Shown here: positions 30,650 through 56,566 of the stretch, piece by piece
How positions within the stretch are numbered: the stretch's first letter is position 1
How the letters are laid out: every line of letters begins with the position of its first letter
Assembly (NCBI GenBank): GCA_963827235.1
Contig: CAWHAE010000012.1
Location: forward strand, 1,280,001-1,344,000
From: an uncultured bacterium
GTDB taxonomy: Bacteria; Chloroflexota; UBA5177; JANWHV01
Reading direction: 5' to 3'
DNA length: 64,000 nucleotides
The notes under the pieces: generated by a model
Told to the model about the DNA's origin: nothing
The model's database searches: none
The model's input: the letters and a program-made list of their open reading frames with translations, nothing else
Position numbers and translations under genes: made by a program

Positions 30650-30835
30650 GCGGACCACCCCTTCTTCACAACGCTGGGCAGACACGCAACATGCCTGCCA
30701 ACCACAACACCGTGAGCGTCCACAGCAGGTAGCCGCTCTCTTCAGACTACCAGGTGAGCTAGAGTTGCCCACGTTCTCGCCTTCGAAGGGTGCCGGCACC
30801 GTAGATGATTCGGGCAGCGGGCTGTTCCTATCTGC

Positions 30836-40161: not shown

Positions 40162-40969
40162 ATTATGCTGATAGGGCGGCGTGTGGGTATGCCGACGTCG
40201 GTGACCGGTCCCGGCTTTGGCGCCCGCCTCGTGCCGGTGGTTGCCGAAGGTCGCAACCTTTCACCCCACCGCAAAAAGATAACCAGAGCTGTGACTGCGG
40301 CGGCGGTGACGCGGGGGGAACTGCCGGCCACGTCGCCGCCTGCCCGGCACATCTCCTGAGCACCAGAGTGATAGGTATCTATTTGCATCGGGTATCTTCG
40401 AGCCGGAGACGGATCGAGCGGCCCTTGCTGCCACATGCGTGCCACTCGCTCCGCCGCTTCTTCCCCTCGAGAGCATCCACCATTGAACCTATTTGCGCCG
40501 GGCGCCGCGCCACCGTCCAGAATGGCGGCGTGCCAAGCCATCGTGCATATCGTTGGGCCAGACAGTCGCCCCAGCTCGCGAGCGGTCAGCCGATGGCGGG
40601 CACAACCGGACCGTGACGCGGCCGCCTGTCGTTACACGACAATCGCAGCCATGCCGGGTATATCCGGAGACTGCCGCGGCCCAGGGCTCGCCCGGCCCAA
40701 GCTTTCGGCCATGCCGTGCGGGTCCGGCCGCCGATGGCAGGCACATGGTGCTGTGACAGCGCGGGCGCCTACAATAGTGAGCAGCCGGCCAGGGACGAGA
40801 CGGCCTTGAGGACGGCCACGACTGGCGGCGGCAGGACGAGGATGTCCCGCCACTATTGGCAGCGGAAACGCGCCGAACCGGTCCTGCTCGGTCGCGCGCG
40901 GCACGCCCGACAGCTCCGGCGCGGGAACCGCAGGGGCAGGATAGCGCAGAGATTGGAGGAGCGACCGAC

Positions 40970-42421
40970 ATGGGCACCGAAGGGCAGACGGCAATCGACA
41001 TCGTGCGCGGCACGCCGCTCAGCGGCACCGGCTTCAACCCGCTGTCGGCCAGGGCAGTACGGAGGTTGGCGGAGCTGCTCGGCCCTGAGCGCGTGTTGCG
41101 CTCGCCCGAGGATCTCCAGGTGTATGCCTACGACGGCACCTTCCTCGAGCACCGGCCCGACGTGGTCGTGCTGCCACGGACGACGGCCGATGTGCAGGCG
41201 GTGCTCAAGCTCGCCGGCGCGGAGCGCGTGCCCGTCATCGCGCGCGGGGCGGGTACCGGCCTCGCCGGGGGTTCCGTACCCCTCGCGGGAGGCATCGTGC
41301 TGGCCTTCACGCAGATGAACCGGGTGATTGAGCTGGACGAGGTGAACATGCTCGTGCGCGTGCAGCCGGGCATGGTGACCGCCGACCTGCAGGCGATGGT
41401 GCTCACGCACGGACTGTACTATCCGCCCGACCCGGCGAGTCAGAAGCAGTGCACGATCGGCGGCAACGTGGCCATGTGCGCGGGCGGACCGCACGGTCTC
41501 AAGTACGGGGTGACCAAGGACTACGTGCTCGGGCTTGAGGCGGTGACCGCCGACGGCAGCGTGATGCGCACGGGCGGCAAGATGATCAAGAACGTCACCG
41601 GCTACAACCTGACCCAGCTCATCGTCGGCTCGGAGGGCACGCTGGCGGTGATCACCGAGATCACTCTTCGCCTCCTGCCGAAGCCGCGCGCCGACCGCAC
41701 GGCAATGGCCGTGTTCGACGACATCGACGTGGCGAGCAAGATGATCACGGCCATACTCAACGCCGGTGTCGTGCCGGCCACGATCGAAATCATGGACCAG
41801 GATTCCGTTCGCCTGGTCGAGGAATGGCTCCATGCCGGGCTGCCCGTCGACGCCCAGGCGATATTGCTGATCGAGTGCGATGGGGAACCGTCGGCCGTGG
41901 AGAGCGAGCTCCGTGACGTCGAACGCCTCTGCCTGGAGGCCGGGGCGCGTGAGGTCCGCGTGGCCAGGGATGCTGCGGAGAGCGAGAAGCTCTGGACGGG
42001 CCGGCGCGCGGTGTCGGCGTCCATGGCCCGCGCACGGCCGACCAAGCTGGGCGAGGATATCTCCGTGCCGCGTAGCGCCATCCCGGAGATGCTGCGCGCC
42101 ATCCGCGCGATCGCCGCGAAGTACCGGCTGCCTATCCCTGTATTCGGGCACATCAGCGACGGCAACCTGCACCCCGAGGTGCTGTTTGACCGCCACGACG
42201 AGGAAGAAGTCTCCCGAGTGAACCTGGCCGCCGGAGAGATCTTCGACGCCGCGATTCGCCTGGGCGGCACGCTGACCGGCGAGCATGGCATCGGCGCCCT
42301 GAAGAAGGAGTTCATGGGCAGAGCACTGGATCCGGTGGAGCTGGAGCTCATGCGCCGGGTGAAGAAGGTCTTCGACCCGCAGGGCATCCTCAATCCGGGC
42401 AAGGTGTTCGGCACCAGGTAG
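40970..42421 (+). CDS. FAD-linked oxidase, GlcD / D-lactate dehydrogenase family
   Basis: ARGAGTGLAGG, YPPDPAS, TIGGNVA..AGG...KYGVT, GSEGTL, GHISDGNLH, TGEHGIG, FDPQGILNPGK. Confidence 0.92.
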   Translation: MGTEGQTAIDIVRGTPLSGTGFNPLSARAVRRLAELLGPERVLRSPEDLQVYAYDGTFLEHRPDVVVLPRTTADVQAVLKLAGAERVPVIARGAGTGLAGGSVPLAGGIVLAFTQMNRVIELDEVNMLVRVQPGMVTADLQAMVLTHGLYYPPDPASQKQCTIGGNVAMCAGGPHGLKYGVTKDYVLGLEAVTADGSVMRTGGKMIKNVTGYNLTQLIVGSEGTLAVITEITLRLLPKPRADRTAMAVFDDIDVASKMITAILNAGVVPATIEIMDQDSVRLVEEWLHAGLPVDAQAILLIECDGEPSAVESELRDVERLCLEAGAREVRVARDAAESEKLWTGRRAVSASMARARPTKLGEDISVPRSAIPEMLRAIRAIAAKYRLPIPVFGHISDGNLHPEVLFDRHDEEEVSRVNLAAGEIFDAAIRLGGTLTGEHGIGALKKEFMGRALDPVELELMRRVKKVFDPQGILNPGKVFGTR

Positions 42422-42469: not shown

Positions 42470-43462
42470 TCAGCCGGCGCCGAATGCACCCGACAGATTC
42501 GTCCACGCTTCCGGCGGCACGCCGCCGGGCAAGCTCTTCAAGGCCAGAAAGGCGGCGCCGGCGGCAGGTGAGAGCCTTGGCGGGCCCACGCGGGCCCCCG
42601 GCAACGCGTCGAGGACGCGTTGCCGGAAGGGTTCGGCGATCAGCTCTCCGGCCTGCCAAACACCGCCGTGGCAGGCAACGGGAAACGCCTTGCCGCCGAG
42701 CCCGAGACGGCTGCCCAGAGCGATCACCATCGCGGCCAGGCAATCCGCGGCGGCCGCCAGCACGCCGGCGGCGGCGCTATCGCCGGCAAGCGCGCATTGG
42801 GTAACCACCGGCGCCAGGCGCGCGATCTGGTCGCGAGTCATGGCCGGCGGGCCGTAGAGCGGGCGAAGCAGGTCGTCGAAGCCGGGCACGTCCACTGCAC
42901 GCGAGAACGCGCCGGCGAGACTGGAGGAAGGCAAGCGCCCGTCCAGCCCGAGCGAGGCCACGCGCAGGCCCTCGCGCGCGATCGCGTAGGCACTGCCCTC
43001 GTCGCCGATCAGGTAGCCCCAGCCGCCGCAGCGACCCGTGTTGCCCTGGTGGTCCCGCCCCAGGGCGATCGAGCCCGTGCCGGCGATCACCACGATGCCA
43101 GCGTCGTCGCCGCACGCCGCGGCCAGCGCAACGTCCGCGTCCGTCCACAGGCCGACGCGGCTGGCCGGATAGGCGCCGGCCACCTGGCGAGTCAGGCGAT
43201 CCTTGTCGGCGGCCGTGTGCAGGCCTGCCAGGCCCACGGCGATCGCCGCGACCTCGTACTCGGGCACGTGCGGGGAGGCTGCTCGGTGCAGGGCCATGCC
43301 GACTGCCTCCACGATGGACCGCAGTGTTTGCGGCTCGCCGACCGCCTGGAAATTCGCCGGTCCGCCCGAACCGGCCGACACCAGCCGCCCTCCGCCGGAC
43401 ACGAGGACGGCGCTCGTGCCGGTGCCGCCACCGTCGACGCCGATCACGTAGCGAGCGCTCAA
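42470..43462 (-). CDS. BadF/BadG/BcrA/BcrD-type N-acetyl-amino-sugar kinase (MurK/GlcNAc-kinase-like)
   Basis: IGVDGGGT, GPANF, VIAGTGSIA, RCGGWGYLIGDEGSAY; 4-nt overlap with the GntR gene. Confidence 0.88.
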   Translation of the reverse strand: MSARYVIGVDGGGTGTSAVLVSGGGRLVSAGSGGPANFQAVGEPQTLRSIVEAVGMALHRAASPHVPEYEVAAIAVGLAGLHTAADKDRLTRQVAGAYPASRVGLWTDADVALAAACGDDAGIVVIAGTGSIALGRDHQGNTGRCGGWGYLIGDEGSAYAIAREGLRVASLGLDGRLPSSSLAGAFSRAVDVPGFDDLLRPLYGPPAMTRDQIARLAPVVTQCALAGDSAAAGVLAAAADCLAAMVIALGSRLGLGGKAFPVACHGGVWQAGELIAEPFRQRVLDALPGARVGPPRLSPAAGAAFLALKSLPGGVPPEAWTNLSGAFGAG

Positions 43463-44202
43463 CGCGGCACGACCATGCGGAAACGGTAGCGATCGGCCCG
43501 GTAGAGCGTATGCCCATAGATCGCCGGCCCGCTGTTGTTTCCGACCTGCACGTAGGTGGTCTGGCTGATCATCAGCGTGGCATCGCGCTTGGAGAGGCCC
43601 AGCAACTGCGCGTCGCCGGCCGTGGGCAGCACGACGGAGAACTCCTGCGAAGCATGCGTGAGCCGTAGTGCAAGCGTGGCTTGAATGAACTCGTACAGCG
43701 AGCCGGTAGACAGGTCGGCATCCAGGATGGGGCGGAACAAGGCGTAATTGAAGTAGGAGGTCTCAAGTGCCATCGGCGACGCGTCCGCGAGACGCAGGCG
43801 CTTGAGGTAAATCACCGCCTCCCGGACCCCCAGGCCGAGGTGCTCGGTGGCGTCCGGCGGAGCCGGAACGACCTCGCGCGCGATCAGCCGGGCCGTGGGC
43901 ACCATGTGTCGAGCATGCATGTCCTCGCTGAAGCTGCGCAGCCTGCTCAGCTCGCGCTCGACCCATTGCTGCGCCACGAACGTGCCGCGCCCACGCTCGC
44001 GTCGAAGCAGCCCTTCTCGAATGAGACCGTCCAGGGCCTGGCGCACGGTCATGCGCGCTATGCCGAATTGCTGGCCGAGCGCCTGTTCCGACGGTATTGC
44101 CTTGCCTACCTCCCAGACACCCGAAGCAATGTTCTCGCGAACCAGTGCCTGAAGCTGGCGGTATACCGGCACACCGGTGTTCTTCTGGAGTGTGGTCACC
44201 AT
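43459..44202 (-). CDS. GntR/HutC-subfamily regulator with UTRA domain (NagR/DasR-like)
   Basis: PVYRQL, IPSEQAL...IARMTVRQAL, RGRGTFV, SFSEDM, YRADRYRF. Confidence 0.93.
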   Translation of the reverse strand: MVTTLQKNTGVPVYRQLQALVRENIASGVWEVGKAIPSEQALGQQFGIARMTVRQALDGLIREGLLRRERGRGTFVAQQWVERELSRLRSFSEDMHARHMVPTARLIAREVVPAPPDATEHLGLGVREAVIYLKRLRLADASPMALETSYFNYALFRPILDADLSTGSLYEFIQATLALRLTHASQEFSVVLPTAGDAQLLGLSKRDATLMISQTTYVQVGNNSGPAIYGHTLYRADRYRFRMVVPR

Positions 44203-44292
44203 CGCTCCCAACCTCCTCCGGTATCAGCGTATCAGCACCCAGGGTCGCACAGATCGCGTCCGCGGTACGGCTCGGTACACCCAGGCATGGAC

Positions 44293-44304
44293 ACGTCTAG
44301 ACAT
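44293..44304. promoter_or_regulatory. GntR operator 1 (ACGTCTAGACAT)
   Basis: GTCTAGAC palindromic core like dre sites; just downstream of the leftward promoter; identical to operator 2. Confidence 0.75.
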
Positions 44305-44323
44305 CTTCCGCCGCGCTGGCTCG

Positions 44324-44352
44324 ATTCTACCGGTGTCCTCATGCAATGTCAA
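44324..44352 (-). promoter_or_regulatory. Sigma70-type promoter for gntR-kinase
   Basis: Minus strand TTGACA-N17-TAGAAT. Confidence 0.8.
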
Positions 44353-44478
44353 CCGGCGGGCGGCAGCGCACGGGGACGAAACCATCGCCCTAAACCAGCG
44401 AAAACCGGTCTATTCTCCGCTCATGCCACGGCCACGGGGCGCTCCAGCGCATGAGCCCGATGGAGCTGCCGGCCCGTA

Positions 44479-44507
44479 TTGACAAGCCCTAGGGGCGATG
44501 ATATACT
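44479..44507 (+). promoter_or_regulatory. Sigma70-type promoter for the GNAT-ABC-namZ/murQ operon
   Basis: TTGACA-N17-TATACT with extended TGn. Confidence 0.82.
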
Positions 44508-44523
44508 TCTCGCATTCTGCAGG

Positions 44524-44535
44524 ACGTCTAGACAT
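44524..44535. promoter_or_regulatory. GntR operator 2 (ACGTCTAGACAT)
   Basis: Identical 12-mer 17 nt downstream of the -10 box. Confidence 0.75.
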
Positions 44536-44777
44536 GTGACCCTGAATTGCGTGCTTGATCGGCGTCGACTTGCCGCTCCAGCCGCGCGGAAAGCGAAGTT
44601 CAGCGCACCGGCGCGCTGTCGTTCGAGCCCCTTGAGCGGCGCTTCCGCCACTCCGCGGGCCTATACGTCGCGCGTGACACCGTCGTACCGTCGGGGCGTC
44701 GCCGACCCGTGATTGCCATTCTGCCTCTACCGCGTTGATCCGTTAGCTACTAACCACGATCAGTGAAGGGAAGAGCG

Positions 44778-45749
44778 ATGCAGCAGGCTTCAATTAGAGG
44801 GTACCTGCCCGGTGACGAGCAGGCGGTTGTCGCTCTTTGGAACCGCTGCTTGCCGGCCGATCCGATCGCGCTCGATCGCTTCGCGCTGCAAGTGCTGCTC
44901 GACGTCAATTTCGATTCCGGCGGCTTTCTGGTGGCCGAGCACGAGGGCGCGATAATCGGCTTCTTGCTGGCCGTCACGCGCAAGACGCCCATGTATGGCC
45001 TCGACGACGATCCCGAAGACGGATGGATCACGGTGTTCTTCGTCCATCCGGCGCACCGCGGCCGGGGAGTGGGCCGGGCACTGCTCGATCGCGGTCGCTC
45101 TCACGTAGCCGCGCGCGGCCGCAGCTGGGTCAGCGTCTCGCCCTATGCGCCCAACTACTTCTGGCCCGGCGTGGACGGCTCGCGGTACGCGCCGGCGGAA
45201 GCCTTCCTCAGGAAGCACGGCTTCGAGACGATCGAGACACCGGTTTCCATGACCTCGAGCCTCGTCGGCTTCAGCATTCCGGAGAGCGTGCACGATCTGC
45301 GGCACCGGCGAGAGCAGGAGGGATACACCTTCGGCACTCTGCGAGATGACCAGATCGTGGGCGTGCTCGACTTCAACATGCAGCATTTCACGGCCGACTG
45401 GGCCCGCTCCATTCGGGAGGCGCTGATCCGCGGCGTGCCGCGCGAGCGCGTGCTTGTTGCCGCGCGTGGCGCCGAGATTGCCGGCTTCTGCATGTATGGC
45501 GGCTACGACCGCGTTGCCGAGCGGTTCGGGCCCTTTGGCGTCCGTCCCGACCTGCGACGCCTGGGCTTGGGGCGGATCTTGCTCTATCTGTGCCTCGAGC
45601 GTATGCATGGCACGGGGCTTCAAAATGCCTGGTTTCTGTGGACGGGTCTCGACGATCCCGCCGGCCATCTCTACTCCAGCGCAGGATTCCAGGTCAGTCG
45701 CCAATACGCGGTCTTGAGAGCGCCTGCGGCGACCGCCGAGAGGAGGTGA
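44778..45749 (+). CDS. Tandem GNAT N-acetyltransferase (GlmA-like glucosamine/glucosaminide acetyltransferase)
   Basis: Two acetyl-CoA motifs VHPAHRGRGVG and FGVRPDLRRLGLG; YAPNYFWPGVD; context next to a MurK-like kinase. Confidence 0.75.
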   Translation: MQQASIRGYLPGDEQAVVALWNRCLPADPIALDRFALQVLLDVNFDSGGFLVAEHEGAIIGFLLAVTRKTPMYGLDDDPEDGWITVFFVHPAHRGRGVGRALLDRGRSHVAARGRSWVSVSPYAPNYFWPGVDGSRYAPAEAFLRKHGFETIETPVSMTSSLVGFSIPESVHDLRHRREQEGYTFGTLRDDQIVGVLDFNMQHFTADWARSIREALIRGVPRERVLVAARGAEIAGFCMYGGYDRVAERFGPFGVRPDLRRLGLGRILLYLCLERMHGTGLQNAWFLWTGLDDPAGHLYSSAGFQVSRQYAVLRAPAATAERR

Positions 45750-45913
45750 AGCCACAGAAGCACCCGTCGCTCGTGCTGTAAGACCACGTCGCAAGACATA
45801 GAAGGCGGGCCCGGGCGCGAACAACCGCGAGCGCTGCAGTGCAGTGCTCGACGCCGGCACGCCGCAGTTACACACCTGTATAGATCAACTACCCAAGCTA
45901 AGGAGGCTGCCCA

Positions 45914-47215
45914 ATGCATGCTCGCCGAATGCTGGCTGCAGTGACACTTATTGCCCTCGCCAGCGCGACCCTTGGCGGCGCCGCACAGTCCCGCGTCTCT
46001 GCAGCAGATCAAGTGACAGTCACCTACTGGACACACGTGAATGCACCGGCGCAGACCGTAGAGAAGAAGCTGATCGCCGAGTACGAGGCCGCCAACCCCA
46101 ACGTCAAGATCAATTACGTGGTGATCGACTTCAACAGCCTGCCGACCAAGCTCACCACTGCCCTGGCGGGCGGCGCCGGCCCGGACATCTTCAACTACTT
46201 CCGCTCCTTTGCGCCGGCTCTCGTGCAGCGCGGCCTCATCGTCCCGGTCGATTTCAAGGCGTTCGGCGTCGCCAATCAGAAAGCGTTCACCGATCGCTAT
46301 CTGCCATCGATCATCGGCGGCTACACCTTCGGCAACGGCGTCTACGGCGTGCCTCACGAGGTGTCGAACTTCGCCTTCTGGGTAAACGGGACCGAGTTCA
46401 AGGCCGCCGGCCTCGACCCGGTCAAGGACTTCCCGAAGACGTGGGCCGACGTGGCGCGGCTCGGCGCCAAGCTGACCATTCGCAAGGGCGGCAAGGTGGT
46501 GCAGGAAGGCATCTCGCTGCCGCTCTATAACGTCATCCGCGACACGCTTACCCTGGATTCCATGGCCCGCCAGGCGGGCGGCGGCCTGTTCAGCGCCGAC
46601 GGCAAGAAGGCACTGCTCAACAGTGCGCCCGCGATCAAGGCACTGCAAACGTGGTCGGACATGGTACACGTACAGAAGATCAACGACCCGGCACTTGGCC
46701 CCACGGCCTCGACCGACAATACCGATCTCTTCGGCAACGGCACCGCGGCTATGATCAACGTCGGCGGCTCCTGGCTAACCAGCATCCTGCAGCAGACCTA
46801 TCCGAAGGTCTACGCCAACTACAACGTGGGACCCGAACCGCGCTTCGATCCCACGACCAAGATCGGCTCCGACATGTACGGCTTCGGTCTGTTCGTGCCC
46901 AAGAGCTCGCAGCACCAAGCCGCGGCATGGCAGTTCGCACGATTCCTGGCCGATCACGGTGACGACTACTTCTCGGGCGCCGGGATCTGGTTGGGAGACA
47001 AGACGCCGTTGAGCACCAATCTTACCAAGACACTGAAGAAGTGGAGCGTGTTCCAGAACACGTTTGCCGAAGGCTCGTTCCTGCCTCCGGTCACCAACTA
47101 CAACGAGCTTGCCAATATCGTCGAGCGGGCGATCGAGCGTGCGGTACTGAACGGCCAGAGCCCGCAGTCGTCCCTCAACCAGGCACAACAAGAGGCCCAG
47201 CCCCTGATGCAATAG
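45914..47215 (+). CDS. Carbohydrate ABC transporter solute-binding protein
   Basis: AAGGAGG RBS, signal peptide, YEAANPNVKI, LAGGAGPDIF, FKAAGLDP...PKTW. Confidence 0.93.
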   Translation: MHARRMLAAVTLIALASATLGGAAQSRVSAADQVTVTYWTHVNAPAQTVEKKLIAEYEAANPNVKINYVVIDFNSLPTKLTTALAGGAGPDIFNYFRSFAPALVQRGLIVPVDFKAFGVANQKAFTDRYLPSIIGGYTFGNGVYGVPHEVSNFAFWVNGTEFKAAGLDPVKDFPKTWADVARLGAKLTIRKGGKVVQEGISLPLYNVIRDTLTLDSMARQAGGGLFSADGKKALLNSAPAIKALQTWSDMVHVQKINDPALGPTASTDNTDLFGNGTAAMINVGGSWLTSILQQTYPKVYANYNVGPEPRFDPTTKIGSDMYGFGLFVPKSSQHQAAAWQFARFLADHGDDYFSGAGIWLGDKTPLSTNLTKTLKKWSVFQNTFAEGSFLPPVTNYNELANIVERAIERAVLNGQSPQSSLNQAQQEAQPLMQ

Positions 47216-47295: not shown

Positions 47296-47410
47296 TGCGA
47301 GAGCCCCTGGCGAGCCGGTTGCCGGTCGCGGACCGTTCACGGCCAGGCGACCCAGATGAGGCCGAGCCGTGCACGGGGATCCGGCACATTCTGCGAGAAC
47401 GGAAGAAGGC

Positions 47411-48286
47411 GTGCGAGAGAAGCGCTTGAGGCTGACGCTGGCGCAGCGACGTTCGTTATTCGGCTTTCTATTCGTCCTGCCCGGCATCGTGCCGCTGCTG
47501 ATCTTCGTCATCTACCCGATGGGCAGCGCGCTCTATCTGAGCTTCACCAACTGGCAACTCATGGGCACGCCTCAACTGCAGGGTGTTTCCAACTATACGG
47601 AGCTATGGTCGGATCTGCAGTTCCGTTCTGCACTCACCGTGACGCTCGAGTTTGCCCTCGGCACCGCCATCCCGTGCTGCGTGCTGTCGACCGCCGTCGC
47701 CGTTTTGCTCAACGCGCGAGTGCGCTTCACCGCCTGGTATCAGCCCCTGTTCTTTCTGCCTGCCGTCTTGCCGACGGTCGTGACCAGCCTGGTATGGGGC
47801 ATCCTGTACCAGGGCAACGGCGTGATCAACAACATCTTCGGCCTGAACATCGGCTGGCTCATCGACCAGAGCTGGGCCCTGCCGGCCCTGATGATCATGT
47901 TGATCTGGACCAACCTCGGCTACTACGCCGTGATCATGCTGGCAGGCATCCGCGAGATTCCCGAGGACTATTACGAGGCGGCGCGGCTCGACGGCGCCGG
48001 CACGCCTGCCTTGCTGTTCCACATCACCCTGCCGCTGGTGCGGCCCACGCTGCTCTTTGTAGTGGTCATCGCGACATCCAACGCCCTGACCCTGTTTATC
48101 CAACCTTATCTGTTGACACAGGGCGGCCCGGGCGATGCCACGCGCACGCTCTCCGAGCTGATCTACGACACGGCTTTCAGCTTCCTCAACATCGGCAAGG
48201 CATCGGCAATGTCGTTCATTTTGTTGGCTATCTCGCTGATCCTGGCCTTCATTCAGTTCAGCATGCTGCGGTCTGGAGACGCCTGA
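47411..48286 (+). CDS. Carbohydrate ABC transporter permease 1
   Basis: EAA loop IPEDYYEAARLDGAG; LYLSFTNW; LTQGGPG. Confidence 0.94.
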   Translation: MREKRLRLTLAQRRSLFGFLFVLPGIVPLLIFVIYPMGSALYLSFTNWQLMGTPQLQGVSNYTELWSDLQFRSALTVTLEFALGTAIPCCVLSTAVAVLLNARVRFTAWYQPLFFLPAVLPTVVTSLVWGILYQGNGVINNIFGLNIGWLIDQSWALPALMIMLIWTNLGYYAVIMLAGIREIPEDYYEAARLDGAGTPALLFHITLPLVRPTLLFVVVIATSNALTLFIQPYLLTQGGPGDATRTLSELIYDTAFSFLNIGKASAMSFILLAISLILAFIQFSMLRSGDA

Positions 48287-48287
48287 G

Positions 48288-49133
48288 ATGAATACGAGGG
48301 ACGCCTATAAGCGGCCGAGCCTGTTGCGGTCGGCGTTCATCCACCTGACGCTCGCGGCGCTCGGACTCGTAGTAGCCATCCCACTCTACTGGACGGTGAT
48401 TTCCTCGATCACCACGAATACCGCCATTTTCGCTACGCCGGTGCAATGGATCCCGCCGGCGCTGCACTGGGAGAACTATCCGCAGGCCATAAACGCGGCG
48501 CCCTTTGGGCGGTACTTCTTCAACAGCTTCGTGGTCGGCGTGTCCGTGACCTTCACCACGCTGGTCTCCTCGGCCCTGGCCGGATACGGGTTCGCGAAGT
48601 TCAGGTTCCCCGGCAAGCGGATTCTGTTCGTGGTCGTTCTCATCGCGCTGATGGTGCCGTTCCAGGCGATCATGATTCCGCTCTTCGTGCTGACGCGCCA
48701 GCTGGGCTGGCTCAACTCGTATGCCGGGCTGATCGTGCCCGGTGCCGTCAGCGGGTTCGGCATCTTTCTCATGCGGCAGTTCATGCTCAAGGTGCCGGAT
48801 GCCCTGCTGGAGGCGGCAACGCTCGACGGCTGCGGGGAGATCAGCCTGTTTGTGCGCATCGTGCTCCCGCTGTCGCGCTCGGCCCTGGCGGCCCTTGCCG
48901 TGCTCACCTTCCTGGCGAGCTGGAACAACTTCCTCTGGCCGCTGATCGTGGCCCAGAATCCCGACGTCATGACCGTGCCCCTGGGCATCGTGCAGTTCCG
49001 CGGCTCCTATTTCACTAACTACACGCAGATCCTGGCAGTGTCGATCCTGGCCGCCGCCCCGGTAATCGTGCTCTATCTGCTCATGCAGCGCCAGATCATT
49101 GCGACGTTCGCTTCGAGCGGCCTCAAAGGGTAA
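48288..49133 (+). CDS. Carbohydrate ABC transporter permease 2
   Basis: LAGYGFAKFRFPG, VPDALLEAATLDGCG, WNNFLWPLI. Confidence 0.94.
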   Translation: MNTRDAYKRPSLLRSAFIHLTLAALGLVVAIPLYWTVISSITTNTAIFATPVQWIPPALHWENYPQAINAAPFGRYFFNSFVVGVSVTFTTLVSSALAGYGFAKFRFPGKRILFVVVLIALMVPFQAIMIPLFVLTRQLGWLNSYAGLIVPGAVSGFGIFLMRQFMLKVPDALLEAATLDGCGEISLFVRIVLPLSRSALAALAVLTFLASWNNFLWPLIVAQNPDVMTVPLGIVQFRGSYFTNYTQILAVSILAAAPVIVLYLLMQRQIIATFASSGLKG

Positions 49134-49143
49134 GGAGAGTCTC

Positions 49144-49845
49144 ATGCCATCAGTCAAGCGCATCCTGGCCATAGGCGGTCACGCGGCAGACATGGAGTTC
49201 AGCGCCGGTGCAGCGATTGCCAAATACACCGCCGCGGGGGCTCAGGCGGTCTTGCTGCACCTCACGGCCGGCGAAATGGGCCATCCCAGGCTCTCCGGCG
49301 AAGAGTACGCCAAGCAGAAGATCGACGAAGCGCACCGTGCCGCGAAGATCCTCGGCGGAGAGGCGCGCTTCCTTCCCTATCCCGACGCGGGGCTGCCCCG
49401 AAACGACGAAGTGGCCTACGCCATCATGGACGTGATTCGCGAGGTGCGCCCGGACGTGGTGATCACGCACTGGCGCGGCAGCTTCCATTCCGACCACAAT
49501 AACACCCATTACAACACGCTGCAGGCCCTATTCTACGCCGCCTTGCCCTCAATCAAGCGCGCGCATCCGGCCCACACTCCGTCTCAGTTGTTCTTCGCCG
49601 AGAACTGGGAAGACATGGACGACTACGTGCCCGACGTCTACCTGAACACCGAGGACGTGTACGATCGTTGGGTGCAGGCAGCCAACCAGTACGAGCTATT
49701 CAGCGGCTCCGTTTCCGGCTTCCGCTACCGCGACTACTACGAGGCGCTGGCCACCATGCGCGGCTGCCTGGCCGGCTACCGACGTGCCGTGACGCTCATG
49801 CGGCCGGCCGACGCGCGAATCAGCTACTGGAAGGAACTGCCCTAG
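49144..49845 (+). CDS. PIG-L/LmbE family deacetylase-like protein
   Basis: LAIGGHAADME, LTAGEMG, EAHRAAKILG, IREVRPDVVITHW...HSDH. Confidence 0.85.
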   Translation: MPSVKRILAIGGHAADMEFSAGAAIAKYTAAGAQAVLLHLTAGEMGHPRLSGEEYAKQKIDEAHRAAKILGGEARFLPYPDAGLPRNDEVAYAIMDVIREVRPDVVITHWRGSFHSDHNNTHYNTLQALFYAALPSIKRAHPAHTPSQLFFAENWEDMDDYVPDVYLNTEDVYDRWVQAANQYELFSGSVSGFRYRDYYEALATMRGCLAGYRRAVTLMRPADARISYWKELP

Positions 49846-51924
49846 ATGGCACGCGAGCATTCCCGGGTGCTGCCCGGAATCGACGTCTTGCTCGAGGACG
49901 ACGACGAGCAGCTTCGTAGCCGCTCGCTGGCCGTGCTCACGGGTTCGGGGGCTACAACGAGCGATCTGATCCCCACGATCTCCGCGCTGCGCGCCAGCAA
50001 GCGCTACCGGATTGTGGCGCTCTTCGGCGCCGAGCATGGCGTTACCGGCGCGGAACAGGCGGGCGTGCAGGTAGAGTCGAAGCGCGACCCGGAGACCGCG
50101 CTGCCGGTCTACAGCCTGTACGGCGAGCACCGGGAACCCACGGCCGAGATGCTCGACGGCGTCGACGTCCTGCTCATCGATTTCGTCGACGCCGGACTGC
50201 GCTACTACACCTATGCCGCCACGGTGCGCGCCGTTCTCCAGGCCGCGGCCCGCTTCGACATCCAGGTCGTGCTGCTCGACCGGCCGAACCCGCTCGACGG
50301 CGTCACTCTGGAGGGTCCCGTGACCGAGCCTGCCTCGATCAATTTCGTGAGCGCCGCGCAGGTGCCTATCCGCCACGGCCTTACCCTGGGCGAGCTGGCC
50401 CGCTGGATGAATGAGCGGGAGCATCTCGGCGCGCGGCTGCGAGTCATCCCCATGCACGGATGGCGGCGATCGTACTCGTTCGACGACACCGGGCTGCGCT
50501 GGACGCTACCGTCGCCCAACATCCCCACCGCGGATACGTGCCTGACCTATGCCGCTACTTGCCTGATGGAAGGCACCCCGGTCTCGGAAGGCAGGGGCAC
50601 CGCGCAGCCTTTCTCCGTGCTCGGAGCCCCCTGGATCGACGGCGGAGAGCTGGCCAACTATCTCAACGCGCGCGCTCTGCCCGGAGTGCGATTCCAGCCC
50701 ACCTGGTTTCTGCCGTCGACGAGCAAGCACGCCGGCCAGATGTGCGGCGGCGTGCAGCTTCACATCCACGCCAAGCAGGCATTCCCCGGCGTGCGCACGG
50801 GCCTGCACATTCTTGCCGGCCTGCGGCAGCTCTATCCACGTGAGATGTCCTGGACATGCGAGACGCCCGGCGACTACTATATCGACCGGTTGTTCGGTAC
50901 GCCGGTCCCCCGGCTGGCCCTGGAGCGCGGCGACTCCCCGGACAGCATCGTCACGTCGTGGCAGGCAGGACTCGACGCGTTCGCTGAGGAGCGCAAGGCC
51001 TACTTGCTCTACGAGCCTGCGGTGGGCCCCCGGCGCACCACCGGCGCCATCTCCCAGACCGAGGCAATCAACGCGCGTACGGCCGACCTGGATACGTTGA
51101 CCCCTCTGGAGATCCTCCGGCTGATCAGCGCGGAAGATGCCACCGTGCCCGGCGCGATAGCCCGCGAGCTGCCCGCCATAGCCGTCGCGGTCGAGCACGT
51201 GGTCGGCGCATTCCGTTTACAAGGCAGGCTGATCTACGCCGGCGCCGGCACAAGCGGGCGGTTGGGCGTGCTCGACGCAGCGGAATGCCCTCCGACCTAC
51301 GGCACCGATCCGTCGCAGGTGGTGGCGCTGATCGCCGGCGGTCCGGCCGCCGTGACCCGATCGGTGGAGCAGGCTGAAGACGACGAGAGTCACGGCGAAA
51401 ACGACGTCGAAGCGCTGCAGATCAGCGAGAGCGACGTGTTGGTCGGCATCGCCGCCAGCGGGCGCACGCCCTACGTGGTCGGCGCCATTCGCCGTGCCCG
51501 CAGCCGCGGCGCCTATACCGTAGCGCTGGTCGGCAACGCCGACGGCCCGGTAGCGGCTGCCGCGGACCTGGTCATCGCGCCGCAAACCGGTCCGGAAGTG
51601 GTAGCTGGATCGACGCGGATGAAGGCGGGCACCGCCCAGAAACTGATTCTCAACATGATCTCCACCACCTCCATGGTCTGCACCGGGCACACCTACGGGA
51701 ATCTGATGGTGAACATGCGGGCCAGCAACCGCAAGCTGCAGGCCCGCACGCACCGGATCGTCGCTCAAGCCACGGGCGCCAGCCTCGAGGAGGCCAGGCA
51801 GGCACTCGACGCATCGGGCGGCGAGATGAAGACTGCCATCGTCATGCTGCGGGCCGGCCTGGACGCGGCCGAAGCTCGCGTTCGGCTCGAGCGAGCCCAC
51901 GGCCAGGTGCGTGGCGCGGTGTAG
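49846..51924 (+). CDS. murQ: NamZ (DUF1343 exo-beta-N-acetylmuramidase) - MurQ (MurNAc-6-phosphate etherase) fusion
   Basis: N-half: FGAEHG, VYSLYG, LDRPNPL, RHGLTLGELA, PSPNIPT, SEGRGT, ending YLLY. C-half: GAGTSGRLGVLDAAECPPTYG, GIAASGRTPYV, GPEVVAGSTRMKAGTAQK. Confidence 0.92.
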   Translation: MAREHSRVLPGIDVLLEDDDEQLRSRSLAVLTGSGATTSDLIPTISALRASKRYRIVALFGAEHGVTGAEQAGVQVESKRDPETALPVYSLYGEHREPTAEMLDGVDVLLIDFVDAGLRYYTYAATVRAVLQAAARFDIQVVLLDRPNPLDGVTLEGPVTEPASINFVSAAQVPIRHGLTLGELARWMNEREHLGARLRVIPMHGWRRSYSFDDTGLRWTLPSPNIPTADTCLTYAATCLMEGTPVSEGRGTAQPFSVLGAPWIDGGELANYLNARALPGVRFQPTWFLPSTSKHAGQMCGGVQLHIHAKQAFPGVRTGLHILAGLRQLYPREMSWTCETPGDYYIDRLFGTPVPRLALERGDSPDSIVTSWQAGLDAFAEERKAYLLYEPAVGPRRTTGAISQTEAINARTADLDTLTPLEILRLISAEDATVPGAIARELPAIAVAVEHVVGAFRLQGRLIYAGAGTSGRLGVLDAAECPPTYGTDPSQVVALIAGGPAAVTRSVEQAEDDESHGENDVEALQISESDVLVGIAASGRTPYVVGAIRRARSRGAYTVALVGNADGPVAAAADLVIAPQTGPEVVAGSTRMKAGTAQKLILNMISTTSMVCTGHTYGNLMVNMRASNRKLQARTHRIVAQATGASLEEARQALDASGGEMKTAIVMLRAGLDAAEARVRLERAHGQVRGAV

Positions 51925-52169
51925 AGCGCCGGCCGCGTAACCGGCTCGTTCTCCGCGAAGCAGCCCACGTCGGCACGGCTGGCGAGTTCGCTCAAGAATG
52001 GCTTCCTCCCGGGACCACGGGTATCTTGCCTGCCCCGCTCGCCGGCCCCAGGAGCTCCGCCATACCCGCGGCCCTCTATGCCGCGGCGACGTCATGATCG
52101 GCCCGCCCCTTTGACCGCGGGCGTCTCGCCGTCTCGTGTCTCACACTTCCGCAAGCGGCCCGGACGGGG

Positions 52170-52385
52170 TCACACGCGCGGTTTGCGGTGGGGCAACACC
52201 AGGAACCACAAGATGGCGCCGATCACCACGATCACTGCGGCGGCGATCACCATGGTGAAGACGGCCTGCAGAAGGAAATACACGGCTGCTACCGCGATGA
52301 CGGTGACCGCGCCGCCGGCAACCGCTTCCCTGCCCGCACGCGTCACGCGGCTCTCGCCATCAGGCACGCGTATGAGATCGCTCAT
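52170..52385 (-). CDS. Small two-TM membrane protein
   Basis: GAGGAG RBS; two hydrophobic helices followed by a basic tail. Confidence 0.6.
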   Translation of the reverse strand: MSDLIRVPDGESRVTRAGREAVAGGAVTVIAVAAVYFLLQAVFTMVIAAAVIVVIGAILWFLVLPHRKPRV

Positions 52386-52646
52386 CTGTCTACTCTCCTC
52401 GACACCATCATATAGCCGCGCAGACCTCACCGCCTCAGTGACCGCTCAACCGCGATCCATCACATTCCACCAGACGCGGTCTCCGATAGCGCCGGGGCAC
52501 AGGCGAGGCGGGTCCAACGCCATCCAGTCGGACGGAATGCCGATCGCGACCGCCAACCGGACGCTGCAGCCGCTGTCCCGTCCATCAGCGACCCACCGCG
52601 GCCGAAGCCCGGCTGGACGTCACTCTCGTACAGGCCGCCATTCTCG

Positions 52647-55100
52647 TCAGTCTCCATGCGGCACCCAGATGTTCTTCACGTGCGTCGCCTCGCGGAGGAA
52701 CTCGCCGGCAGTGCCGGAGGTATCCAGCCAGTCGATCTCGTCGCCGGGCACAGCCCAGGTGCGTTTCAGATTCCCCGCCGACGCCAGCTCCACCTCTTTA
52801 ATGCCCTCCGCCGTGCCGAAATACCAGACCGACTGCACGTCGTCGTGCGCCGCAAGCACCGGAGCCAGCACGTCGCGCTTGCCGGTAACCACGTTCACCA
52901 CGCCGGCCGGCACGTCGGACGTCTCCAGCACCTGGTAGAAGTCGGTCGCGCTCAACGGGTAGACCTGCGACGGCACGATCACCAGCGTGTTCCCCACGGC
53001 GATCGCCGGCGCCATCAACGCCACGAAGCCCAGGAGCGGGTACTCGTCCGCACAGAGGGCTCCGATCACGCCGATCGGCTCCGGCACGGCAAGGGTCAGC
53101 CCGCGCATCGGCGTGTGCGCCACCCTGCCGTCGTACTTGTCTGCCCAGGCGCCGTAGGTGAACAGGCGCTCGATTGCCAGGTCGACCTCGGTCAGGGCCG
53201 ATATGCGCGCGAGCGGCTGCCCGATGCCGGCAGCCCCGTCCCGCAGGGTACAGCCGGTCATCGCCGAGATGCGGCGGCCGAACTCCAGTCTGCGCTCCGA
53301 GAGATTCTCCGCCAGGTAGTAGAGGATCTGCGCGCGGTTGTAGCTCGTAGTCAGGCTCCAAGCCGCTGCCTTCTGCGCCGCTTCCACCGCGTTGCGTATG
53401 TCCTTGCGATTGCCGTCGCCGGCCTCGCCAACCAGGGATCCACCCGGCGCGCGAATGAGCAGGCTGTAGCCGGAATCAGGGCGCGACTGCTTCCCCCCGA
53501 CATACAGCTTCGGCGTCCGATCGATCGGCGGGTAGCCGGCGCTCTCCGCATCGGCCGCTCCGTTGCCGGCCTCAGACTCTTCCCCGCCGGGCAAGTCCGC
53601 CGAGGCCGCGGGCACGGGGCGTTCGCGTGTAACGCTGCCGACGCGCTTTACGTACTCGTAGAGCCCCTCCTTGCCGCCTTCGCGGCCGAATCCGCTCTCA
53701 CGGTAGCCGCCGAAGCCGGAGGCGGCGTCGAGGAGGTTGGTGCAGTTCACCCATATGGTGCCGGCCTTGATGCGCCTGGCCACATCCAGAGACAGGTTGA
53801 CGTTCTCGCTCCACACGCTGGCCGCAAGCCCATACGGCGTGTTGTTGGCAAGCTCGACCGCTTCGCCGGCGCTGCGAAACGTCATCGCCACCAGCACCGG
53901 CCCGAAGATCTCAACCTGCGCGATCGTGGCCGCGGGTGTCACGTCGGTAAACAGCGTCGGCGGATAGAAGTAGCCGTCGGCCGGGCAGGACCAGGTCGGC
54001 TGCCACAGCGTGGCGCCTTCCGCGATTCCCTTCTCTACCAGGCTGCGCACCCGTTCCAGCTGCACGCGAGCGATGATGGCGCCGATATCCACCGCCTTAT
54101 CCAGCGGATCGCCCACGCGCAGTGTCTCCATTCGAGCCCGCAGCTTCTTCAGCAGCGTGCCGGCAATGTTCTCTTGCATGAGCAGCCGCGATCCGGCGCA
54201 GCACACCTGGCCCTGGTTGAACCAGATGGCATCCACGATGCCTTCCACGGCGCTGTCCAGGTCGGCGTCGTCGAATACCAGGAACGGAGACTTGCCACCC
54301 AGCTCCAGAGAAAGCCGCTTCCCGGTGCCAGCGGTCGCACGCCGGATGGCGCGGCCCACTTCGGTCGAGCCGGTGAACGCTATCTTGTCCACGTCCGGGT
54401 GATTCACGAGCGCCTCACCCGTGCGGCCGTCGCCGGTCACGATGTTGACCACGCCGGGCGGCAAGTTGACCGACTCCACGATCTCGGCAAAGAGCAGCGC
54501 CGTCAACGGTGTGAACTCGGCGGGCTTCAGCACGACCGTATTGCCCATTGCCAACGCGGGCGCGACCTTCCAGGCCAGCATGAGCAGCGGGAAGTTCCAG
54601 GGGATGATCTGCCCGGCCACGCCCACGCTCTCGTAGCCCTGGAGCTCTTCGTCCATGAGCTGAGCCCAGCCGGCATGGTAGGCGAAGTGCCGAGCTACCA
54701 GAGGAATGTCGATATCGCGTGTCTCGCGAATGCACTTACCGTTGTCGAGCGTCTCCAGCACGGCGAACAGTCTGCTGTGCTTCTGTACCCGGCGTGCAAG
54801 CGCATAGAGGTAGCGTGCACGCGCGTGCCCGGGCAGAGCTCGCCACTGCGGGAGAGCGGCGCGCGCTGCGCCGACCGCGGCGTCGACATCCTCGGGCGCC
54901 CCCTGGGCCACGCGGGCCAGGAATTTGCCTGTCGCCGGGTTGATCGAGTCAAAGTACTCACCAACCCGAGGCGCTACCCACGCGTTGCCGATGAAAAGGT
55001 CAAAGCGATTGTCGTGCTCCGCCAGCCAGGCCAGCGCCGGGCCGGCCACTTCAGGCGCCGGGCCGTAGGTCATCGTCTCGAATAGCTCCGCGACACTCAT
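52647..55100 (-). CDS. Extended aldehyde dehydrogenase (ALDH16-like, with second degenerate domain)
   Basis: IIPWNFP, FTGSTEVG, LELGGKSP, QVCCAG, EIFGPV, then a second Rossmann-like domain lacking the catalytic domain. Confidence 0.92.
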   Translation of the reverse strand: MSVAELFETMTYGPAPEVAGPALAWLAEHDNRFDLFIGNAWVAPRVGEYFDSINPATGKFLARVAQGAPEDVDAAVGAARAALPQWRALPGHARARYLYALARRVQKHSRLFAVLETLDNGKCIRETRDIDIPLVARHFAYHAGWAQLMDEELQGYESVGVAGQIIPWNFPLLMLAWKVAPALAMGNTVVLKPAEFTPLTALLFAEIVESVNLPPGVVNIVTGDGRTGEALVNHPDVDKIAFTGSTEVGRAIRRATAGTGKRLSLELGGKSPFLVFDDADLDSAVEGIVDAIWFNQGQVCCAGSRLLMQENIAGTLLKKLRARMETLRVGDPLDKAVDIGAIIARVQLERVRSLVEKGIAEGATLWQPTWSCPADGYFYPPTLFTDVTPAATIAQVEIFGPVLVAMTFRSAGEAVELANNTPYGLAASVWSENVNLSLDVARRIKAGTIWVNCTNLLDAASGFGGYRESGFGREGGKEGLYEYVKRVGSVTRERPVPAASADLPGGEESEAGNGAADAESAGYPPIDRTPKLYVGGKQSRPDSGYSLLIRAPGGSLVGEAGDGNRKDIRNAVEAAQKAAAWSLTTSYNRAQILYYLAENLSERRLEFGRRISAMTGCTLRDGAAGIGQPLARISALTEVDLAIERLFTYGAWADKYDGRVAHTPMRGLTLAVPEPIGVIGALCADEYPLLGFVALMAPAIAVGNTLVIVPSQVYPLSATDFYQVLETSDVPAGVVNVVTGKRDVLAPVLAAHDDVQSVWYFGTAEGIKEVELASAGNLKRTWAVPGDEIDWLDTSGTAGEFLREATHVKNIWVPHGD

Positions 55101-55111
55101 GGGCGCGGCCC

Positions 55112-56461
55112 TCACTTCCCATAGCCCGTCATACCTGCGAGCCGACCACGTGGATTGAGTCGAGGCTCTGCTGCACCTGTTCGTATTCTTGAGCCAGGTC
55201 CGGCGTGCGGGCGTTGACGCTGAGCTTCGCCCAAGCTCACGATCCCGGCCACAACGCTCATGCCGCTGCTATCGGACCGCACGCGTACCTCGCACTGCGC
55301 TTCCAGCGGCTGACCCGTCAGGCGAAGCACGGCATCGGCAATGCCGTACTGCTGGCCATCCACGGTGCGCACCTCATTGGTAATGGTACCGATCGGCGTA
55401 CCCAGCGTGCGCAAGAATGCCGAGACATAGCTCGGATTGGAGATATCGCCCGTCGTGGTCGCTCGGGAGCCGAGGATAATGGCCGTCTTGTCCGGCGACG
55501 CGATCTGATAGTTGCCGCCGGTGCCGTTGGTCACGGTCCAGGCGGATGGATAGACAATGCTATAGTCGGCTCCGGTCGGCGACGCGCTCGCCGTCGTATA
55601 TGCCTTGCCCAGCGCCTGTGCCGGGCCGGAGCGCGTGGAAAGCAGCTGCATGAGGGTCTCGATCGTCTCGTTCTGAGACAGCGCGTGCGTGCCATTGCCG
55701 TCGGTGACGGTGCCGCTGCTCGACACAGTCTGGCGCAGATGCTCGTTCAGGAAGACGCCACTTTCGACACCGATACCCCAGGTTCCGCTCTCGCTCACCT
55801 TGGTCGTCGTCACGTAGTGCTTACCCGCGCTCGTGGTCGACGACTTGCCGCTCGTCTGCATGGTCGTGGTCACCGTCGCCACGCGTCCGAACTGGCCGCT
55901 AGCGATCTTGCTCAAGGTGTTGACCAGGGTCACCGGCGAGGCGCCGCCGAACCAGGTATTGTCTATCGAGCTGTTCCACTTGCCGGAAAGCGCAACCGGC
56001 TTCAGCGACACCTGACCCACGTCGTTCAGCCCATAGGCGCCGCGGTACACGCAGTACTGGGTGCCGTCATTCTCCTGAATGCAGGCATTTGCCGGGCTGC
56101 TGAGCTTGTCCGCCGGAACGGTGGTGTGAGTCGTCTTGCCGTTATGAACGTCGGTCTCCTGGCCGGGGTTGAAGTCGATGGAGAGCGTCGCGTTACCGGC
56201 TGAGTCGACGCCGTGCACGACGTAGCGGGCCTCGTAGAGCACGGTGCTGGTCAGGGCATCTGCCGGCTGCCCGGCAATATTCGTCTTGATCGTCTCCACG
56301 GTCTTCATGGAGTAGGTGAGCACCTCGCCGGCCTTGAAGCGGTAGCGCAGCGTCACCGCGGCACTGGAATCGGCGCGGGCGGCGGGCAGAGACCCGCCTC
56401 CCAGGGCGAGCGCGCCGGCGATCATCAAGACAACTTTGTAGGAAACACCATAGCGAGCCAT
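55112..56461 (-). CDS. Exported two-domain hypothetical protein, probable frameshift near the 3' end
   Basis: Signal peptide ending PAARA; LRYRFKAGEVLTY domain; YSIVYPSAWTV PsbP-like domain; a better C-terminus exists in another frame ending at 55129. Confidence 0.65.
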   Translation of the reverse strand: MARYGVSYKVVLMIAGALALGGGSLPAARADSSAAVTLRYRFKAGEVLTYSMKTVETIKTNIAGQPADALTSTVLYEARYVVHGVDSAGNATLSIDFNPGQETDVHNGKTTHTTVPADKLSSPANACIQENDGTQYCVYRGAYGLNDVGQVSLKPVALSGKWNSSIDNTWFGGASPVTLVNTLSKIASGQFGRVATVTTTMQTSGKSSTTSAGKHYVTTTKVSESGTWGIGVESGVFLNEHLRQTVSSSGTVTDGNGTHALSQNETIETLMQLLSTRSGPAQALGKAYTTASASPTGADYSIVYPSAWTVTNGTGGNYQIASPDKTAIILGSRATTTGDISNPSYVSAFLRTLGTPIGTITNEVRTVDGQQYGIADAVLRLTGQPLEAQCEVRVRSDSSGMSVVAGIVSLGEAQRQRPHAGPGSRIRTGAAEPRLNPRGRLAGMTGYGK

Positions 56462-56566
56462 CCATGCCTCCAAGTGCAGTCTTTTCTCCGTGCGGCACCA
56501 TGGTATCTGGTTTTCGACTTGCGGGGTATGCCGCGGGCCCCTGGCGCGAGAGCCCGGTAGAGGGGC

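Follow-up and report, generated by a model that had tools for sequence, protein, structure and literature searches.

A NamZ-MurQ fusion gene in an uncultured Chloroflexota bacterium and its predicted role in peptidoglycan-sugar catabolism

Introduction

Why would two enzymes of one pathway be joined in a single protein when the reaction lying between them is carried out by another? This question is raised by an open reading frame (ORF) of 692 amino acids in the genome of an uncultured bacterium of the Chloroflexota (assembly GCA_963827235.1). It is located in a stretch of 64,000 nucleotides of contig CAWHAE010000012.1 (positions 1,280,001 to 1,344,000), which we call the window and whose own numbering is used throughout. 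The original prediction, made from the letters alone, described the ORF as a fusion of two proteins that are normally separate: NamZ, a member of family GH171 that would release N-acetylmuramic acid (MurNAc), and MurQ, the MurNAc 6-phosphate (MurNAc-6P) etherase. A kinase step lies between the two. We asked whether the fusion is a genuine gene, how often such fusions have arisen, and in which pathway the protein may act.

One reading frame encodes NamZ and MurQ

The fusion gene is composed of the following parts:

49846..51924, + strand: NamZ-MurQ fusion (Pfam, NCBIfam and PDB matches)
49846..51012, + strand: GH171/NamZ part, residues 1-389, signal-less (NamZ_N and NamZ_C)
51013..51057, + strand: linker, residues 390-404 (variable, low model confidence at 393-400)
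51058..51921, + strand: MurQ part (MurNAc-6P etherase), residues 405-692 (TIGR00274 and PDB matches)

The ORF begins with an ATG that directly abuts the stop of the upstream PIG-L gene and runs without internal stop to the stop codon at 51922-51924. Pfam assigns residues 29-229 to NamZ_N (PF07075; 236.5 bits, gathering cut-off 26.9), residues 233-389 to NamZ_C (PF20732; 172.1 bits, cut-off 25) and residues 439-654 to SIS/GKRP-type domains, and the NCBIfam MurQ equivalog model TIGR00274 covers residues 405-691 with 354.5 bits (cut-off 302). In a search of PDB sequences the NamZ half matched DUF1343 structures of Bacteroides fragilis (BF0371, 4k05, 7e-64 over residues 6-389; also 4jja), and 287 aligned residues of the MurQ half (405-691) matched solved MurQ proteins (4s12, 1e-84; 4lzj and 1nri, 2e-80). 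These matches bear out the claim that both enzymes are encoded in one frame. Within the genome NamZ and MurQ have one match each, both inside the fusion ORF.

The NamZ half ends as predicted with the residues YLLY (386-389, nucleotides 51001-51012); the linker that follows, E390-Q404 (EPAVGPRRTTGAISQ), has 15 residues instead of the approximately 14 first given. It contains a single GTG codon in frame (V393), ahead of which we found no Shine-Dalgarno-like purine run on inspection, in agreement with the view that the gene has no obvious internal ribosome-binding site. The first conserved Gly is preceded by only 10 residues and no hydrophobic stretch, which is too little for a signal peptide, and the NamZ half was rightly called signal-less. 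An AlphaFold2 model based on a 96-row alignment reached a mean predicted local distance difference test (pLDDT) value of 95.2. Since values below 50 are confined to residues 1-3 and 393-400, the protein is modelled as two well-folded domains connected by a flexible tether.

The following residues of NamZ are kept in the fusion: E63, H64, D112, D115, G117, R119, D145, R146, E183 and R250. E63, in the stretch GxEHG, is Glu in 202 of 209 members of the NamZ family, and R250, in the stretch SEGRGT, is Arg in 200 of 209. For the enzyme of Bacillus subtilis, Glu92 and Arg279 are named as putative catalytic residues in PMC8054146; judged from this description and from the model strand at 55-61, E63 and R250 presumably correspond to them. 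As noted in the original prediction, one motif of the family is altered. Instead of DxQDxG the fusion has DFVDAG at residues 112-117 (D112-F-V114-D115-A-G117). Position 114 is Gln in 189 of the 209 other members and in 9 of 9 fused relatives, and Pro, Val, Phe or Ser in 18 of the 209; the Gln of this motif is strongly, not absolutely, conserved.

In the MurQ half, E480 (stretch AAECPP) and E511 (stretch QAEDDE) are located 31 residues apart and are identical in the alignments with 4s12 and 4lzj. We take them to be the catalytic glutamates, Glu83 and Glu114 in Escherichia coli numbering. Both are shared with the MurQ proteins of E. coli, Haemophilus influenzae and Yersinia (4lzj, 1nri, 4s12), which in contrast to the fusion are stand-alone proteins of about 300 amino acids. 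Overall the ORF appears to encode a genuine, signal-less, bifunctional cytoplasmic enzyme of peptidoglycan-sugar catabolism, with activities predicted from its sequence.

The fusion is shared by relatives

A congener (G002; contig title "MAG: Chloroflexota bacterium") has the same in-frame fusion of 694 amino acids with 67% identity and no stop. Nine more clusters at 90% identity, originating from JGI, NCBI, ENA and Logan, are fused as well (688-704 amino acids, 61-67% identity). Taken per domain, identity to G002 and the nine clusters amounts to 58-74%. The linker of the fused relatives measures 12-17 residues and is poorly conserved. Among the 120 best homologues listed, 24 contain both domains, the query and two fragments being counted. 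Relatives are thus by no means all split into two genes. In the source databases the fused proteins are annotated simply as "N-acetylmuramic acid 6-phosphate etherase".

At the level of nucleotides, exact contigs of 151 nt from the gene occur in two public runs. One of these contigs spans 50893-51043 without differences and covers YLLY and 28 of 42 linker bases; as its run possibly represents the source sample, it is not independent. For bases 51044-51111 no exact piece was among those listed in two public DNA runs. Reads across 51000-51060 had been suggested as a check, and this region is accordingly confirmed as far as 51043 and uncovered from 51044 onward, so the junction is bridged in part. 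Shares of sampled words were found in only two DNA runs and were small (0.11 and 0.05, in short contigs of low depth), and no RNA run was listed with sampled words of the fusion gene. The fusion is real and not an artefact of assembly.

Distribution and origins of the fusion

We searched 401 genomes of Chloroflexota and found the uninterrupted fusion in two of them only, the query genome (G000) and G002. Matches at E<=1e-30 were present in 89 genomes, with a match to the NamZ part in at least about 33 (table count); since two candidates were scored per genome, these counts are lower bounds. Among 1.84 billion representatives at 50% identity, 15,879 proteins match at E<=0.001. Both domains occur in 7 of the best 150 representatives, in the order NamZ-MurQ in P0010, P0042, P0124, P0125 and the partial P0173 and in the order MurQ-NamZ in P0033 and P0123. 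A search of genome contigs yielded one fused locus (L011), on the same contig as that of G002. In a search of metagenome contigs no fused locus was found among at least 54 loci, nearly all of them stand-alone MurQ recovered via one conserved peptide pattern. Two seemingly full-length matches from Pseudoalteromonas were discarded, as they represent adjacent murQ-namZ genes. The NamZ-MurQ architecture is rare.

Trees of the NamZ and MurQ domains were calculated with FastTree, which gives local support values only. In the NamZ tree 11 fused and 5 unfused rows form a clade (clade A, support 97) that is nested in a clade of 32 rows (support 100), the remaining 16 members of which are all unfused. 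The branching order of clade A is identical in the NamZ and MurQ trees, which indicates that its two halves evolved together. A second fused clade of 12 rows, clade B, is separately monophyletic (support 99 and 100) and includes a protein from a metagenome-assembled genome (MAG) named "Bacillota bacterium" at NCBI, annotated only as MurQ. P0011 has a different position in the NamZ tree, and in the MurQ tree its half is sister to that of a kinase-MurQ fusion. The two reversed forms, P0033 and P0123, are separate from one another, the MurQ half of P0123 being sister to that of G026, whose murQ and namZ genes adjoin in the same order. When clades A and B were forced together in an IQ-TREE analysis of 64 rows, the log-likelihood fell by 62.7 units (p-AU 0.016); the p-value is weakened by the group having been named after the first tree was seen. 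At least five independent NamZ-MurQ fusions in both domain orders would be the most parsimonious explanation of these trees.

According to the original prediction, the fusion is not known to have been described. Full-text literature searches, with subscription journals outside their coverage, returned no title or abstract describing one, and in PMC8054146 the word "fused" does not occur and "fusion" refers to a His-tag only. In the literature found, the architecture is therefore undescribed, and it can hardly be called common and characterised. It is not unique to this genome, however, given its apparent recurrence in the lineages described above.

Within clade A unfused rows are found in at least three separate places, ending 5-13 residues past LLY, and the state changes between fused and unfused at least three times. 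We verified the unfused state for congener G004, in which PIG-L is followed by a NamZ gene (394 amino acids) with its stop and by convergent unrelated genes, and MurQ is encoded elsewhere in the genome. The scattered unfused rows together with this verified case suggest that the fused state is easily gained or lost.

Two genomes illustrate how a fusion may come about. In G003, of the same genus, namZ ends with TAT GAA TAA and the ATG of murQ lies inside this sequence, resulting in an overlap of 8 nt; as murQ is in a different frame, a small frame-shifting indel would be needed for fusion. In G286, of another family and 99% complete, one operon contains namZ, TAA, a 12-nt spacer, murQ and a BadF-type kinase; the two genes are already in one frame, so that loss of the stop codon would fuse them. 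The MurQ half of clade A groups with the stand-alone MurQ proteins of congeners G001 and G003 (support 97), which indicates that it is the lineage's own gene. Most likely, the fusion arose from an overlapping, translationally coupled namZ-murQ pair through loss of a stop codon.

Pairwise fusion of peptidoglycan-recycling enzymes is frequent. We observed MurQ joined to BadF kinase, in either order, as well as AnmK-MurQ, GH3-NamZ and beta-lactamase-fold-NamZ (P0138, P0188, P0215, P0245, P0258, P0263, P0246, P0211, P0249, P0158, P0159 and P0170). Tandem NamZ also occurs with SLH or LysM domains. The AnmK-MurQ fusion contains the N-terminal part of AnmK only.

The kinase gene and the leftward operon

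Genes and sites to the left of the divergent intergenic region are:

40856..42421, + strand: GlcD-like FAD-linked oxidase (519 bits, below the cut-off of 568 bits)
42470..43462, - strand: BadF/BadG-family sugar kinase (PF01869, 8zo3)
43459..44211, - strand: GntR/HutC-type regulator with UTRA effector domain (profile matches)

The kinase step that intervenes between NamZ and MurQ has, as anticipated, a candidate in a separate gene, the BadF-type kinase at 42470-43462. It is located 6.4 kb from the fusion in a divergent gntR-kinase operon, in which the gntR stop and the kinase start share 4 nt. Of the two PF01869 genes in the genome it is the better scoring (129.3 bits, cut-off 31.5). Its best solved relative is 8zo3 (6.4e-32 over residues 4-307), deposited as 'N-acetylmuramic acid/N-acetylglucosamine kinase'. 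With the NCBIfam NagK model it scores 98.5 bits, far under the cut-off of 370, so that its specificity for MurNAc is putative. We regard this kinase as the predicted step between NamZ and MurQ. Its close homologues P0272 and P0280 are located on contigs equal in length to those of the fused P0008 and P0009, which is a hint only. The original prediction had also suggested docking of the kinase to the fusion. A complex prediction for the fusion with the kinase (P0268, residues 1-303), run with the chains as alignments and no controls, scored 0.00 against a mark of 0.32 and speaks neither for nor against docking.

Two genes from the kinase lies a gene of the AXE1/CE7 acetyl-xylan-esterase family (38713-40005, - strand), the product of which could de-O-acetylate sugars.

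The rightward operon and its putative regulation

The fusion is preceded on the same strand by:

44763..45749, + strand: double-GNAT protein, first gene of the rightward operon, with weak MshD likeness (profile matches)
45914..47215, + strand: sugar-type extracellular solute-binding protein, SBP_bac_1, with weak NgcE likeness (profile matches)
47369..48286, + strand: ATP-binding cassette (ABC) permease, BPD_transp_1, UgpA/MalF-like (profile matches)
48288..49133, + strand: ABC permease, BPD_transp_1, UgpE/MalG-like (Pfam, NCBIfam)
49099..49845, + strand: PIG-L/LmbE-family de-N-acetylase, start codon uncertain (Pfam, NCBIfam)

A PIG-L gene directly upstream of NamZ is also present in congeners G002 and G004, and a divergent amidohydrolase adjoins the namZ-murQ-kinase operon of G286. 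The NagA model TIGR00221 has no match in the genome, which is 95.9% complete. Owing to these arrangements we suggest that PIG-L may act as a non-orthologous replacement of NagA, the deacetylase of N-acetylglucosamine 6-phosphate (GlcNAc-6P). No domain of a phosphotransferase system (PTS) was found among the window ORFs scanned; a genome-wide search was not made.

The 550 bp between the two divergent operons contain two promoter-like sites, one per direction, each agreeing with 11 of 12 consensus positions, and two copies of a 12-mer:

44324..44352, - strand: promoter-like site TTGACA, 17 nt, TAGAAT (11/12), facing gntR-kinase
44479..44507, + strand: promoter-like site TTGACA, 17 nt, TATACT (11/12), facing the operon from GNAT to the fusion
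44293..44304, no strand assigned: operator-like 12-mer ACGTCTAGACAT, immediately downstream of the promoter-like site for gntR-kinase
44524..44535, no strand assigned: further exact copy of this 12-mer, immediately downstream of the promoter-like site for the operon of the fusion

The palindromic core of the 12-mer is GTCTAGAC. The 12-mer has three exact copies in the genome of 7.98 Mb, two of which are these sites of the divergent region, spaced 231 bp. A third copy lies on contig C9, at a distance of 234 bp from a fully palindromic copy with one mismatch (positions 8827-8838 and 9061-9072 of locus L112, which is G000:C9:372001-390000). Downstream of the C9 pair follow a peptide-type solute-binding protein, two Opp-type permeases, AnmK, a beta-lactamase-fold hydrolase and a GNAT protein, and the locus resembles an operon for the uptake and recycling of anhydro-muropeptides that belongs to the same regulon. 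It is likely that the GntR/HutC regulator represses both operons of the window via the two copies of the 12-mer, which we consider putative operators. A 12-nt operator core of the DasR/NagR type was dropped as a candidate, since it gave 34 scattered matches at up to 3 mismatches and none in the divergent region. A generic search for inverted repeats in 44150-45950 found nothing convincing.

Other features of the window

Three ORFs near the fusion, at 52078-52938 (+ strand), 51217-52095 (- strand) and 55112-56473 (- strand), have no match in Pfam, even at E 0.1, or in NCBIfam and were not counted as part of the system. Several long ORFs at 24689-30799 are likewise without Pfam match. With a G+C content of about 65%, some of the long ORFs lacking Pfam matches (52078-52938, 55112-56473, 24689-30799) may be spurious. 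An ORF of 822 amino acids (52647-55115, - strand) encodes a complete aldehyde dehydrogenase domain (residues 46-490) followed by a divergent copy of its N-terminal half with 31% identity, an odd arrangement that is not a recent duplicate. Furthermore, a protein of 843 amino acids (2620-5151, - strand) combines a helix-turn-helix, an NB-ARC/NACHT-like ATPase and tetratricopeptide repeats (STAND type).

A proposed pathway and its alternatives

The reading that we favour, and hold to be moderately probable as a whole, is that the locus serves the cytoplasmic breakdown of imported MurNAc-GlcNAc (GlcNAc, N-acetylglucosamine), with the fusion acting as a tether. In this scheme the sugar-type ABC importer would take in peptide-free MurNAc-beta-1,4-GlcNAc or short glycan fragments, from which the NamZ part would release the non-reducing MurNAc inside the cell. 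The separate BadF-type kinase would then phosphorylate MurNAc, and probably GlcNAc, at O6, and the MurQ part would turn MurNAc-6P into GlcNAc-6P and D-lactate. PIG-L would stand in for NagA, and the GlcD-like oxidase might consume the D-lactate. The whole locus would be controlled by a NagR/DasR-like GntR repressor. MurNAc-6P produced by AnmK of the second locus would also be routed to the fused MurQ, as no other MurQ was found in the genome. The benefit of the fusion probably lies in 1:1 co-expression and in co-localisation by a flexible tether and not in an obligatory channel. A channel is disfavoured because the intervening step is carried out by a separate protein, MurNAc-6P from AnmK is shared, the linker is flexible and variable, and the fused state flips within clade A. 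Such flips are what one would expect of a convenience and not of an obligate machine.

Several observations weigh against this reading. The NamZ half carries three private changes, G25S, Q114V and S166N, at positions where at least 80% of the 209 family members and 14 of 14 clade relatives agree, compared with 0-1 such changes per clade relative (n=14); its activity could therefore be altered or lowered. The NamZ literature searched contains no characterised member that is signal-less. The rightward operon has no gene for an ABC ATPase, MurNAc saccharides are only predicted substrates of the importer, and the roles assigned to PIG-L and the double-GNAT protein are guesses. Allowing up to one mismatch, the 12-mer has 11 matches in comparison to 22 for a reversed control. 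As global enrichment is absent, the case for operators is founded on the pairing of exact copies at two loci of related function. Finally, the AlphaFold2 model has a predicted template modelling score (pTM) of 0.70, by which a fixed orientation of NamZ towards MurQ is neither shown nor excluded; the value is too ambiguous for a fixed interface to be claimed.

In a first alternative, already raised in the original prediction, the imported disaccharide is the substrate of the kinase, and NamZ would be a 6-phospho-N-acetylmuramidase that cleaves MurNAc-6P-GlcNAc and could hand MurNAc-6P directly to MurQ, a functional counterpart of MupG of Staphylococcus aureus. The repeated fusion of NamZ and MurQ in both orders and their frequent adjacency would be easier to understand for consecutive steps. 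Its cytoplasmic location also sets the NamZ part apart from all characterised NamZ enzymes, and conserved NamZ positions have undergone both clade-wide and private changes. On the other hand, the locus contains no PTS component, the nearest solved relative of the kinase (8zo3) is named for monosaccharides, and the only MurQ found must serve AnmK as well. Fusions of MurQ with the kinase are at least as frequent, as expected if the kinase and then MurQ act on free MurNAc. Secreted members have the same family-wide conserved NamZ residues, and no new phosphate-binding residue was identified, in a comparison that had no ligand-bound structure to map. We consider this alternative unlikely.

A second alternative, which we judge to be distinctly improbable, holds that the NamZ half has been retuned or weakened in this genome by Q114V, G25S and S166N. 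It would then be mainly a module for binding or scaffolding, or have another glycoside as its substrate, and the protein would be kept for the sole MurQ found. The excess of private substitutions over the clade relatives, the prevalence of Gln at position 114 and the presence of the genome's only MurQ match in the fusion agree with this idea. In opposition to it, the putative catalytic residues E63 and R250 are preserved, as are the other near-invariant positions, and other members also carry Pro, Val, Phe or Ser at position 114. The NamZ half deviates at 15 of 105 conserved columns, which is within the range of the clade (8-17) and slightly above the upper quartile of the family (interquartile 2-14, maximum 36). 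The ratio of NamZ to MurQ divergence is 1.20-1.44 for the query and 1.04-1.71 for other fused pairs. As deviation counts and ratios are ordinary, outright decay of the NamZ half was rejected, and this alternative survives as a minor rival through the three private changes.

That the fusion results from an assembly or sequencing error joining two adjacent genes is extremely improbable, even for a draft genome with an estimated contamination of 9% and with relatives whose namZ and murQ are adjacent and overlap so that one indel could yield a false fusion, because G002 and the nine clusters from several data sources are fused in frame with a comparable linker and the exact 151-nt contig covers the end of NamZ together with the greater part of the linker.

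Comparison with known systems

The characterised NamZ enzymes of B. subtilis (PMC8054146) and Tannerella forsythia (NamZ1 and NamZ2; bioRxiv 10.1101/2021.12.02.470905) have signal peptides and are reported or predicted to be located outside the cytoplasm. NamZ (YbbC) of B. subtilis, encoded in the operon murQ-murR-murP-amiE-nagZ-namZ, shares with the fusion NamZ_N and NamZ_C, the Glu/Arg pair, the linkage to MurQ and the recovery of MurNAc. It is however a secreted, separate protein, and MurNAc is imported and phosphorylated by the PTS protein MurP, whereas the protein described here would be cytoplasmic, is fused to MurQ and would depend on ABC uptake and a soluble kinase. T. forsythia likewise uses a soluble BadF-type kinase (MurK) and not a PTS between MurNAc release and MurQ. 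Its NamZ1 and NamZ2 are predicted to be periplasmic with signal peptides and all its proteins are separate, in contrast to the cytoplasmic, fused form predicted here.

Other fusions differ in the steps that they connect. Kinase-MurQ fusions join consecutive steps, whereas NamZ-MurQ skips the kinase step, and secreted fusions of NagZ or an amidase with NamZ act on the same extracellular substrate. A cytoplasmic 6-phospho-N-acetylmuramidase feeding MurQ is known from Staphylococcus aureus, namely MupG, the substrate of which is phosphorylated by the PTS at uptake. MupG shares the position in the pathway but belongs to an unrelated family, and its domain does not appear in the Pfam scan of the fusion (P0001).

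Absence of a signal peptide is not restricted to fused proteins. Among 239 NamZ homologues, a sample biased toward relatives of the query, the conserved Gly is preceded by at most 20 residues in 122 and by 21-70 residues in 85, and 76 of these 85 show a hydrophobic, signal-like stretch. With 122 of 239 lacking room for a signal peptide, signal-less NamZ proteins form a large group. It is tempting, if doubtful, to see in them an intracellular branch of GH171 that forms a three-enzyme unit with MurQ and the BadF-type kinase; the boldest version, a 6-phospho-muramidase that feeds the fused MurQ, would have only a small chance of being right. If it were true, an ABC transporter plus kinase would constitute a third route for MurNAc-GlcNAc beside those of B. 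subtilis (extracellular NamZ and PTS) and S. aureus (PTS and MupG).

Significance

The fusion is a variation on a known recycling pathway and does not represent a new kind of enzyme or system. The repeated fusion and adjacency of signal-less NamZ proteins with MurQ and a sugar kinase is strong genomic evidence that they act inside the cell on imported MurNAc saccharides. Since fused and split forms exist side by side, nature offers a system for asking whether tethering of non-consecutive enzymes gives a kinetic gain. As a "Rosetta stone" the fusion points to a putative intracellular route for peptidoglycan sugars, based on an ABC transporter and a kinase, in Chloroflexota, Bacillota and others, and this route may matter for how bacterial necromass is turned over in digesters and soils.

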